From Rozella allomycis CSF55 (Eukaryota), in contig KE561047.1 of NCBI GenBank assembly GCA_000442015.1, forward strand, positions 141,341-205,340: a DNA stretch of 64,000 nt. Direction: 5' to 3'. A program made the translations under genes and the position numbers. Below, piece by piece: positions 33,934 to 36,906 of the stretch; position 1 is the stretch's first letter, and every line of letters starts with the position of its first letter. The notes beneath the pieces are model-generated. The model was not told the origin of the DNA. It made no database searches and was given only the letters and a program-made list of their open reading frames with translations.

Positions 33934-36906
33934 ATGGAAGAATTCGGCACGAAAGCAATAGATCAAAATGTCTTAGAAAAGACAATATTTGACAAGGTAT
34001 TAAAACCATATGCACAGAACAGGTTGGCGAGGCCATGGCAAAAAAAGAGCAGCAAAGATTTGATGGAAAGTTGGAGACTCTAAAATCTGAAATAGAGTAA
34101 CAATATACTTTGTAGAGGAAAGAAAGAACCCTAGAAAGAAAAATATCCAAAGAAAAGTATAGTTCAAATTCGCATTTAGAATTGGTATGAGTGTTTTCTT
34201 GAAAGGAGGTTAGAAGCAGCAATTAGAAGAGTTGAAAAGAGAACAAGCATTCTTGTTGGCTGAACAAGATGAGAATGATAAAATGGCTGATGATGAAGAT
34301 TTAGTTCAAAAGGGGATTTTGGCGCCACATGAGAAGAATGTAGACCAGGATCTTTTAAATGAAGATTATGAAGAAAGAGAAAGTTTTCATGGTGATAGTG
34401 ATGATATGGATTCTATGAATGAAGAGGATTCTGAGAATGAAGAGAAAGTCGTAAAGAAGATGAAATTGACAATACAAGATGATGGAGATGAACGGTTTTA
34501 TAGAGTATGGAGAGTTTGTATTTTATAATAGCAAAGAATTGAAGATTGGAAACAAACATATCAGGAATTGAAGGATAAAGATTCAAAGTTCGATGCTAGA
34601 TATAAAATACCAGGAGAGATTTATAGACATTTATTTTTATATCAAAAAACAGCCGCTAGATGGTTATGGGAATTATACAAACAAAGAGTTGGTGGAATTA
34701 TTGGAGATGAAATGGTAATTAAACTGTGTGAATTCTAATTAAGGGACTTGGAAAGACTGTTCAAATAATATCATTTTTGGCTGGCTTGCATTACAGTGGA
34801 ATGTATAAAGGATGTAGCTTAGTTGTTTGCCCCGCGACTGTAATGCATCAATGGGTAAAAGAATTCCATCGATGGTACCCGCCTTTCAGAGTTGCAGTTT
34901 TGCACAAGACAGGATCTCATGATGGATCTTATGCTGATCTATTGTATAAAATGAATTCTACTGGAGACATTGTAATAACAACTTATTCTCAATTACAGCT
35001 GCACCAAACGTTGTTTCTGGATAAGAAGTGGTTTTATGTTGTTTTGGATGAAGGGCATAAAATAAGAAATCCAGATTCAAACATAACCCTTGTTTGCAAG
35101 CAGCTTAAAACTGAATTTCGAATAATTCTAAGTGGCACTCCAATCCAAAACAATTTGAGTGAACTTTGGTCACTTTTTGATTTTATTTATCCAGGAAAAT
35201 TGGGAGTATTAAATTCTATTTATTATTTTATAGACATTACCAGTATTCCAAGATCAATTCGCAGCACCTATTCAAGCTGGTGGATATGCTCATGCAACAA
35301 CATTACAAATTCAAACTTCATATAAATGTGCAGTAATTTTAAGAGATTTAATAAATCCTTATCTTTTACGGAGAATGAAGGCTGATGTTGTAACGCATTT
35401 GCCAAAGAAAACTGAACAGGTAAGAAATATCGAAATGTTTAAAATTGGTTTTATTTTGTAATATAACGGAATATCAAAGAAAATATTATGAAGATTTTAT
35501 TCAATCAAGAGAAATGTCGGCAATTTTTGATGGAAAACGACATGTGCTTGTTGGGATTGATTATTTAAGAAAATTATGTAATCATCCAGATTTAGTGATT
35601 CCCGCTGAAAAGAATACTACAAGTGAAGAAAGAAGTGGCAAAATGAAAGTTCTTTTATCTGCATTGGAAAAATGGAAAGAAAATGGAAACAAAGTTTTAA
35701 TCTTTTCCCAAACGAGAATGATGCTTGATATCATTGAACATGCAGTGAAAGAAAAGAATTATTATTATTTAAGAATGGATGGATCTACTAATGTCAATCA
35801 ACGAATGCCCCTAGTGGAAAAATTCAATCAAGATTCTCAAGTTTTCTGTTTTCTTTTAACTACCAAAGTTGGAGGTTTAGGAATAAATTTAACTGGCGCT
35901 GATAGAGTTCTCATCTATGATCCAGACTGGAACCCTTCTAATGACGCTCAAGCAAGGGAAAGGGCTTGGAGGCTTGGTCAGAAGAAACAAGTTGCCATTT
36001 ATAGATTAATCATTGCCGGCACAATTGAAGAAAAAATTTATCACAGACAAATCTTTAAACAATTTTTAACAAATAAAATTCTCAAAGATCCAAAACAATC
36101 TAGATTTTTCAAAGTAATTGGTATTAAGACGTTATACTAAAGACTACTGAATTATATGATCTATTTACTCTTGATGTTAATAGAAGCGATGGAAACGAAA
36201 CTACTGCATTGCTTGGTCATCTTGGTGAAGAATTGGAAATGATCATCGATGGTAAAAAGAAAAAGAAGAAAAAGAATTTAAGCATTGATGGCGTTTGTCG
36301 AACTGATGATCAGTAAACATATTTCTCGACATTCTTTCTAGCGTTGAAAAAGATGAAACATTGAAAAACAATGACGATTCTATTCTAGATGACGTAACAA
36401 AAATGGCGGGCATCCAGGGTTCGCTAAGGCACGATATTTTCGTTGAAAAGAAACGACCAGATTTAAAACTAATAGAAAAAGAAGCAGAAAAAATATCAAA
36501 AAATGCAATAGAAGCTTTGTTACAATCAAGAAAAGAAAGGAAAAAGTCCAGCGTGGCAGTTCCAACTTGGACAGGGAAATCTGGAAGTGCTGGAATCCCA
36601 GTCTTTGGTTCATTGCGAAATAATTCAATTTCAAAAGCACCTTCTTCCAATGATTTAATTCAACAAATAAAAAATAAGGATCTGTCGGTGCCCCAAGATA
36701 AAGTATCAAAGTTGATGCACGATCTGTATAACTATTTTGTTGCTCACAATCATTCATGCTCCTCGTCGCAAGTTGTTAATGCATTCAGATCCAAAGTTAA
36801 ACCCGATCATGTCATTTTGTTCAAAAAGATGCTTAAAGAATTGGCGAATTTTGATAAGAGATCAGGAACTTGGACTCTTAAAGAAAACATTAAAAATATT
36901 GAATAA
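33934..36906 (+). CDS. RAD26: Rad26/CSB (ERCC6) Snf2-family translocase, about 9 introns
   Basis: [82 protein letters not shown]-terminal winged-helix-like segment. Confidence 0.93.

Follow-up and report, generated by a model that had tools for sequence, protein, structure and literature searches.

The 64-kb stretch of Rozella allomycis DNA analysed here (the window) carries on its plus strand a RAD26/CSB (ERCC6) gene with a modelled extent of 33934–36906 and full-length similarity to ERCC-6 chains (E 1e-215) and Rad26 chains (E 1e-202). Eight of its nine modelled introns are GT-AG introns of 26–30 nt. The remaining one, at 35420–35447 (28 nt, phase 0), begins with GT and ends with TG; it separates an upstream exon ending in ...LPKKTEQ (35234–35419) from a downstream exon (35448–36113) that is 100% identical over 95% of the query to the R. 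allomycis CSF55 protein RKP19637.1, whose cluster also includes EPZ33654.1. From 35417 to 35459 the sequence reads CAG/GTAAGAAATATCGAAATGTTTAAAATTG/GTT TTA TTT TGT, where GTAAGAAATATCGAAATGTTTAAAATTG is the intron. Read through 35420–35447, the upstream frame meets a stop codon shortly afterwards, so an intron length of 3n+1 must be removed, and removal of 35420–35447 regains the EQ-VLFC junction of RAD26/CSB. AG is absent from +6 to +59, the one AG before that lying inside the GTAAG donor. The next AG (35478–35479), 32 nt downstream of the TG end, would give a 60-nt intron in the wrong frame, as had been claimed in the first-pass annotation, which reported no AG at the modal distance. Sliding the junction, enumerated up to a donor at 35449, revealed no better dinucleotide pair. 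On the sequence evidence assembled here, 35420–35447 is probably (about 0.8) a constitutive U2-type GT-TG intron with no usable 3' end other than UG.

The position of the junction was further evaluated by homology. Directly after LPxKxxx and free of gaps, the 92 of 119 orthologous proteins that could be parsed by this pattern have VLFC (89), ILFC (2) or VLFV (1); the other 27 escaped the pattern and were left out of the count. The Pfam SNF2-rel_dom profile continues across the TG junction, with position 235 on the last upstream codon and position 236 on the first downstream codon. The initial proposal that excising 28 nt restores PKKTEQ-VLFC is thus borne out by the frame, by the 92 parsed orthologues and by the step from 235 to 236 in Pfam. 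When candidate introns were scored against a profile of 98 orthologous segments, the 28-nt intron ending in TG gave 205.9 bits, followed by a 25-nt intron ending in AA (199.9), a 31-nt intron ending in TT (196.8), a 22-nt intron ending in AG (177.1) and a 43-nt intron (174.9). The 25-nt intron, which would end at an in-frame non-G site and add one residue before VLFC, keeps the frame and has the second-best of these scores, but an extra residue at this point occurs in 0 of the 92 parsed orthologues, the length lies below the floor for this genome, and AA ends occur at chance in the neutral pass described below; we regard it as very improbable. Conservation of the intron position was sought in two metagenome scans. 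The first gave no match, and the second yielded 80 RAD26-like loci (49 judged via paired motifs, the other 31 via contiguous translation), 0 of which had an intron at the RAD26 junction in a set biased to intron-poor genes; no close Rozella relative was recovered in these scans.

Both public models of the gene, EPZ33654.1 and RKP19637.1, instead treat 35420–35457 as coding and splice out a 22-nt GT-AG intron at 35458–35479 on the plus strand, a frame-restoring pair that the first-pass annotation had overlooked. This intron has canonical ends and a GTAAT donor, regains the frame and is also picked by our AG-only model. However, it swaps out the near-invariant VLFC, adds two residues and scores 29 bits worse than the 28-nt TG intron. 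Its length is also below the 26-nt floor: in the AG-only model 1397 of 1493 introns measured 26–32 nt and only 7 of 1493 were shorter than 26 nt, the RAD26 call among them, while a model-free count after GTAA[AGT] displayed an AG peak at 26–29 only, with no AG excess at length 22. An intron of 22 nt is, moreover, too short to hold the A at +23 discussed below. We judge the 22-nt intron to be an annotation artefact, and it is quite unlikely that the public models are correct.

The donor of the predicted GT-TG intron (CAG/GTAAGA, 35417–35425) fits the U2-type consensus, scoring above 94% of 1415 modelled AG-intron donors, while the AG acceptor expected of U2-type introns is replaced by TTG (35445–35447), which supplies the first G at or past +26. 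An A at +23 (35442), 5 nt ahead of the last G, is the putative branch adenosine; A occupies this position in 73% of AG introns, and in RAD26 it lacks a TACTAAC-like context. U12-type introns have the donor consensus RTATCCTT; the RAD26 donor is GTAAGAAA, and a U12-type intron is ruled out.

The first-pass annotation had singled out bases 35445–35447 for a check against sequencing error. Contigs from two DNA runs, X3 (34984–36809, depth 253) and X4 (34713–37000, depth 936), span the TG site and carry TTG with 0 differences from the assembly, so TTG is not a sequencing error; the assembly may itself derive from X3, and X4 is another sample. A contig of run X6 represents a second haplotype, approximately 2% diverged, with 40 differences over 1900 nt. 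Among the differences listed (40 of 69, the unlisted ones apparently lying past 36138), none falls between 35323 and 35519, and TTG is very probably common to the second haplotype too. Contigs of run X7 do not reach the intron, and no splice joints were present in the contigs of the four runs X3, X4, X6 and X7, the last without cover of the site. An assembly error, or a heterozygous site with TAG on the other allele, could be entertained given that the genome is heterozygous, that contigs can drop variants and that 40 of 69 differences are listed. The identity of the X3 and X4 contigs at the site and the lack of listed X6 differences around it argue against this, as does the second public model, which has amino-acid differences in common with the X6 haplotype and also avoids the 28-nt intron; this explanation is extremely improbable. 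Over 33700–37000 of the window, where the two haplotypes are approximately 2% apart, bubble depth is approximately 2:1 in X3 and 1:1.8 in X6, and X4 contains one haplotype.

Haplotype differences also bear on whether the gene is functional. Five exons contain 29 of the 38 differences listed as far as 36138; 26 of these are synonymous and 3 non-synonymous against a neutral expectation of 73% non-synonymous (p 2e-12); those listed downstream of the intron comprise 8 synonymous and 1 non-synonymous. The ratio of 26 to 3 indicates that RAD26 is alive and that selection has continued to act on it while the intron ended in TG. Budding yeast can live without RAD26, which counts for an alternative in which a damaging acceptor mutation has left the intron barely spliced and RAD26 crippled or dead, introns ending in TG, CG or GG (collectively BG) being a tolerated mutational load. 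That human AG-to-TG mutants show no splicing at the TG (PMC2374985) also speaks for it, as does the fact that splicing at the RAD26 TG is deduced from DNA sequence. Against it, the TG site appears common to two haplotypes approximately 2% apart, whose differences point to strong purifying selection upstream as well as downstream of the intron, and random acceptor damage would be expected at −1 as often as at −2, yet the ends found in the sampled contigs are enriched for a kept G. We therefore consider a damaging mutation improbable; inefficient but sufficient splicing at the TG is compatible with the preferred reading of a GT-TG intron.

A count of GT..TG junctions, which the first-pass annotation had envisaged genome-wide, was run on 848.5 kb (contigs C699, which contains the window, C706, C611 and C861) of the 11.86-Mb assembly with a self-trained gene model, and found BG ends to be enriched. 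In a neutral pass, which admitted any acceptor at 25–33 nt weighted by intron composition only, with no homology and no dinucleotide preference, the RAD26 junction at 35420–35447 was selected. Half of the internal non-AG calls in this pass were BG (15/30; 13 TG, 1 CG, 1 GG) versus 8.1% expected (p 2e-9), while the four control runs, in two of which the ends were scrambled and in two of which random ends were planted, yielded 2/35, 3/36, 3/39 and 2/42. AA ends were at chance level (6/30 versus 17.5% available), and non-AG ends other than TG, CG and GG showed no enrichment. After self-training, BG ends accounted for 40 of 1359 internal introns (2.9%), a rate that can be inflated, and the neutral floor was 15/1344 (1.1%); the modelled BG share of introns in the sampled 848.5 kb is thus roughly 1–3%. 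In annotated fungal introns, the 'other' class makes up 0.26% (PMC7072748 Table 1). As CG ends also occur, the acceptor pattern is not UG-specific. The donors of BG introns were not significantly stronger than others (p 0.18). Taken with the RAD26 evidence, these counts indicate that the RAD26 feature is real, most likely a constitutive GT-TG intron, and belongs to a recurrent class in the R. allomycis genome. The passages on introns in two papers (PMC6349667, PMC8476143) mention short introns and intron density only, and no report of non-AG acceptors in Rozella was found in the literature searched, which included few subscription papers.

Within the 64-kb window there were three TG calls among 129 modelled introns. 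Besides that of RAD26, the model predicts a 27-nt GT-TG intron at 3856–3882 on the plus strand, where Pfam is uninformative, and a 26-nt one at 20874–20899 on the plus strand in an ankyrin-repeat gene, where an in-frame AG lies at +35. Pfam continuity was used to examine the BG calls more widely. Flanks were long enough in 35 of 43 calls, 11 of which were informative, with 8 exact to the codon (RAD26 included) and 3 off; for AG controls, 32 were tested, 10 were informative and 7 were exact. This approach resolves codons rather than bases, and one AA call that passes is a single base from AG. One BG call, in a retroelement integrase stretch, is probably false. A retroelement integrase (rve plus H2C2 zinc finger) whose reading frame is disrupted lies at approximately 4067–4633 of locus L094. 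Two modelled TG introns occur in one FAD-linked oxidase gene (G000:C861:130508–130535 and 130625–130650, locus L085), and two BG calls per gene were also observed at C699 92648–92841 and C861 3120–3330.

Intron geometry was examined for the sampled contigs. Of 1413 AG introns, 1037 have an A at position +23 counted from the donor, as opposed to 33% after 17,804 non-donor GTA sites, and this A is frequent at every length (26 nt, 88%; 27 nt, 73%; 28 nt, 62%; 29 nt, 76%; 30 nt, 69%), with no branch consensus around it. The same A was present in 30/43 BG calls, compared with an A in 31/86 at +20/+21 (p 4e-4). In a model-free test of GTAA..TG sites, where true sites would be a small minority, the +23 A was not in excess (83/231, 36%, versus 37%). 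We infer from its position that branching occurs at the +23 A. When donor and frame were kept constant, in-frame BG ends were found in 19/46 cases at +26 to +29 versus 30/270 elsewhere (p 3e-6; neutral sites, preselected within 25–33 nt). AGs ending at +24 (88/1413) or +25 (37/1075) are passed over, while those at +26 or later seldom are (12 seen, 43 expected), and lone Gs at +26 or later are freely passed over. Ahead of the AGs that are used, G shows no depletion (73/581 versus 13%), so that an AG in reach wins, and a rule by which the first G is used is excluded, G at +26 or later not being depleted in AG introns. It appears that the A is set at a fixed distance from the donor, that the first AG within reach is then used, and that BG serves as the fallback. 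The original suggestion that the acceptor is chosen by distance and tolerates UG therefore holds in part: distance matters and GT-TG is the best model at RAD26, but distance alone is insufficient and the tolerance is not specific to UG. Introns of 54–59 nt often have an internal AG-GT at +27 to +30, resembling two unit introns end to end; examples lie at 31957–32014 (minus strand) and 46851–46906 (plus strand) of the window, with approximately 10 others in the 848 kb.

In Rozella we located the major spliceosome parts U2, U6, Prp8, Slu7, Prp18, Fyv6 and U2AF1. U2 GUAGUA and U6 ACAGAGA were checked for alteration and both are conventional, and no loss of Prp18, Slu7 or Fyv6 was found. Prp8 retains the glutamine equivalent to yeast Q1594 (position 39 of a gap-free match to yeast Prp8 1556–1630). 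One conventional U2AF1 was present among 20 CCCH-finger matches, in the subset of loci read, and it retains F20, C27, R28, H29, S34, R35, C149, R150, Q151, R159, C163, N164 and F165. As all the AG-contacting residues reported for U2AF1 (PMC7505975) are conserved, early recognition shows no change. Prp18 has a loop that reads WPMGVMGPINLNERH where homologues have WPIGVTMVGIHERS. It agrees with the consensus in 10 of the 16 loop columns that are highly conserved; among 149 homologues, 83 agree in 16/16 and only 3, one of them truncated there, in 10 or fewer. Three residues kept by most of the 149 homologues (T in 141, G in 137, H in 148) are replaced in the Rozella loop, which also has a one-residue insertion and is the same in the assembly and the second public model. 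Outside the loop, 32 of 34 conserved columns are matched, which equals the median of 32. Among the 7 of 149 representatives that were looked up, none was named as Rozellomycota for comparison.

BG acceptors become active in yeast when Prp18 is lost or its conserved loop is deleted, and an AUG acceptor is used more upon loop deletion (PMC10711555). Since Prp18 and Slu7 are reported to be dispensable at a short branch-to-acceptor distance (PMC10711555), the loop erosion in Rozella may be a consequence of tiny introns rather than the cause of BG use. Counting against a link to Prp18, Stentor is listed without Prp18, yet its introns are mostly GU-AG (PMC9505925).

These observations can be combined into a mechanism in five steps. 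A strong GUAAG donor, seen in the sequence, would define an ordinary U2-type spliceosomal intron. The branch adenosine would lie at a near-fixed +23 from the donor with no branch consensus, its position being demonstrated and its branching presumed. Exon ligation would take place at a G 3–7 nt past the +23 A, with AG preferred where one can be reached and AGs that end before +26 passed over, as the counts above indicate statistically. With no AG in reach, UG or CG would be accepted because the last G can still pair with the first intron G while checking of the −2 position is loose. In this position, the A of an acceptor AG contacts the branch A. The pairing of last and first G is the model of PMC10711555. 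In a final, speculative step, against which we would set the odds, the loose −2 check would be tied to the eroded Prp18 loop. The outcome would be normal Rad26 protein with EQ-VLFC. The whole proposal, that the spliceosome counts approximately 23 nt from donor to branch A and, owing to a remodelled Prp18 loop, uses UG or CG as the sole, constitutive acceptor of a few percent of its introns, among them introns of conserved genes, is tentative and on balance doubtful. If it is true, R. allomycis would represent in nature what the Prp18 loop mutant is in yeast.

It is an open question how the spliceosome selects and proofreads the 3' AG, and examples of non-AG acceptors have so far mostly been rare alternatives next to an AG or errors in mutants. 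S. cerevisiae without Prp18 or its loop resembles Rozella in its UG, CG and GG ends, its kept terminal G and its U2 spliceosome, with AUG, UUG and ACG prominent among the yeast BG sites (PMC10711555). By analogy, the RAD26 TG intron may work like the BG sites of Prp18-deficient yeast. Those sites are described as mutant-induced alternatives beside an annotated AG (PMC10711555), whereas Rozella is a wild organism in which BG is the sole in-frame acceptor and Prp18 is present with a diverged loop. Human TG-AG tandem acceptors share the U2-type TG end (PMC2374985), but in that account TG is never the sole acceptor and an AG lies within 28 nt, while the closest AG to the RAD26 acceptor comes 32 nt after it and in another frame, which rules out a human-type tandem. 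The GT-TG, GT-CG and GT-GG introns described in Drosophila are U2-type, with TG plus CG and GG ends, as in Rozella (PMC4528330). They differ in that 35 of 37 BG introns have a similar alternative splice, and in frequency, the 37 coming from approximately 60,000 introns (PMC4528330) compared with the modelled 1–3% in Rozella.

Tiny introns are shared with the 15–16-nt introns of Stentor (PMC9505925) and with myxobolid myxozoans (PMC13644364), which, like Rozella, have a narrow length range, no branch consensus, conserved U2/U6 motifs and a near-fixed branch A, putative in Rozella. In Stentor this A shifts with length (10th in 15-nt introns, mostly 11th in 16-nt introns; PMC9505925), whereas in Rozella it is at +23 in introns of 26–30 nt, and the intron sections of the two reports describe no recurrent non-AG acceptors (PMC9505925, PMC13644364). 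In Fritillaria, as proposed for Rozella, the major spliceosome departs from the AG rule naturally and across the genome, but 95% of Fritillaria introns are non-canonical and the U2AF there is duplicated and diverged (PMC13326754). In Rozella at least 97% of introns are AG introns and the one U2AF1 found is conventional, which rules out a Fritillaria-type regime. The Prp8 Q1594A substitution relaxes −3 and −2 at exon ligation (PMC12707134), and the relaxation at −2 is like that proposed for Rozella, whose Prp8, in contrast, keeps the glutamine. If the modelled rate holds, sole-BG introns at 1–3%, combined with a fixed donor-to-A distance and an altered Prp18 loop, would provide hundreds of test cases, and the public models of this much-used early-branching genome would be wrong at BG sites, RAD26 included.

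Two further features were observed in the spliceosomal genes. Beside the Prp18 loop (locus L033, approximately 1635–1650, G000:C1022), the assembly encodes ASFAY at a place occupied by the conserved ANDAY in the second public model. One version becomes the other if the 5-nt loop flanked by 5-bp inverted arms is turned round, and ASFAY is either a micro-inversion allele or an assembly artefact. In Prp8 (G000:C706, approximately 11700–15100, minus strand), an exon end plus donor is repeated in tandem at three places (HNYL, SYKMN and TTDNM), one of which produced a false AA call; these repeats may represent genuine compound introns or a head-to-tail joining of two haplotypes in the assembly.
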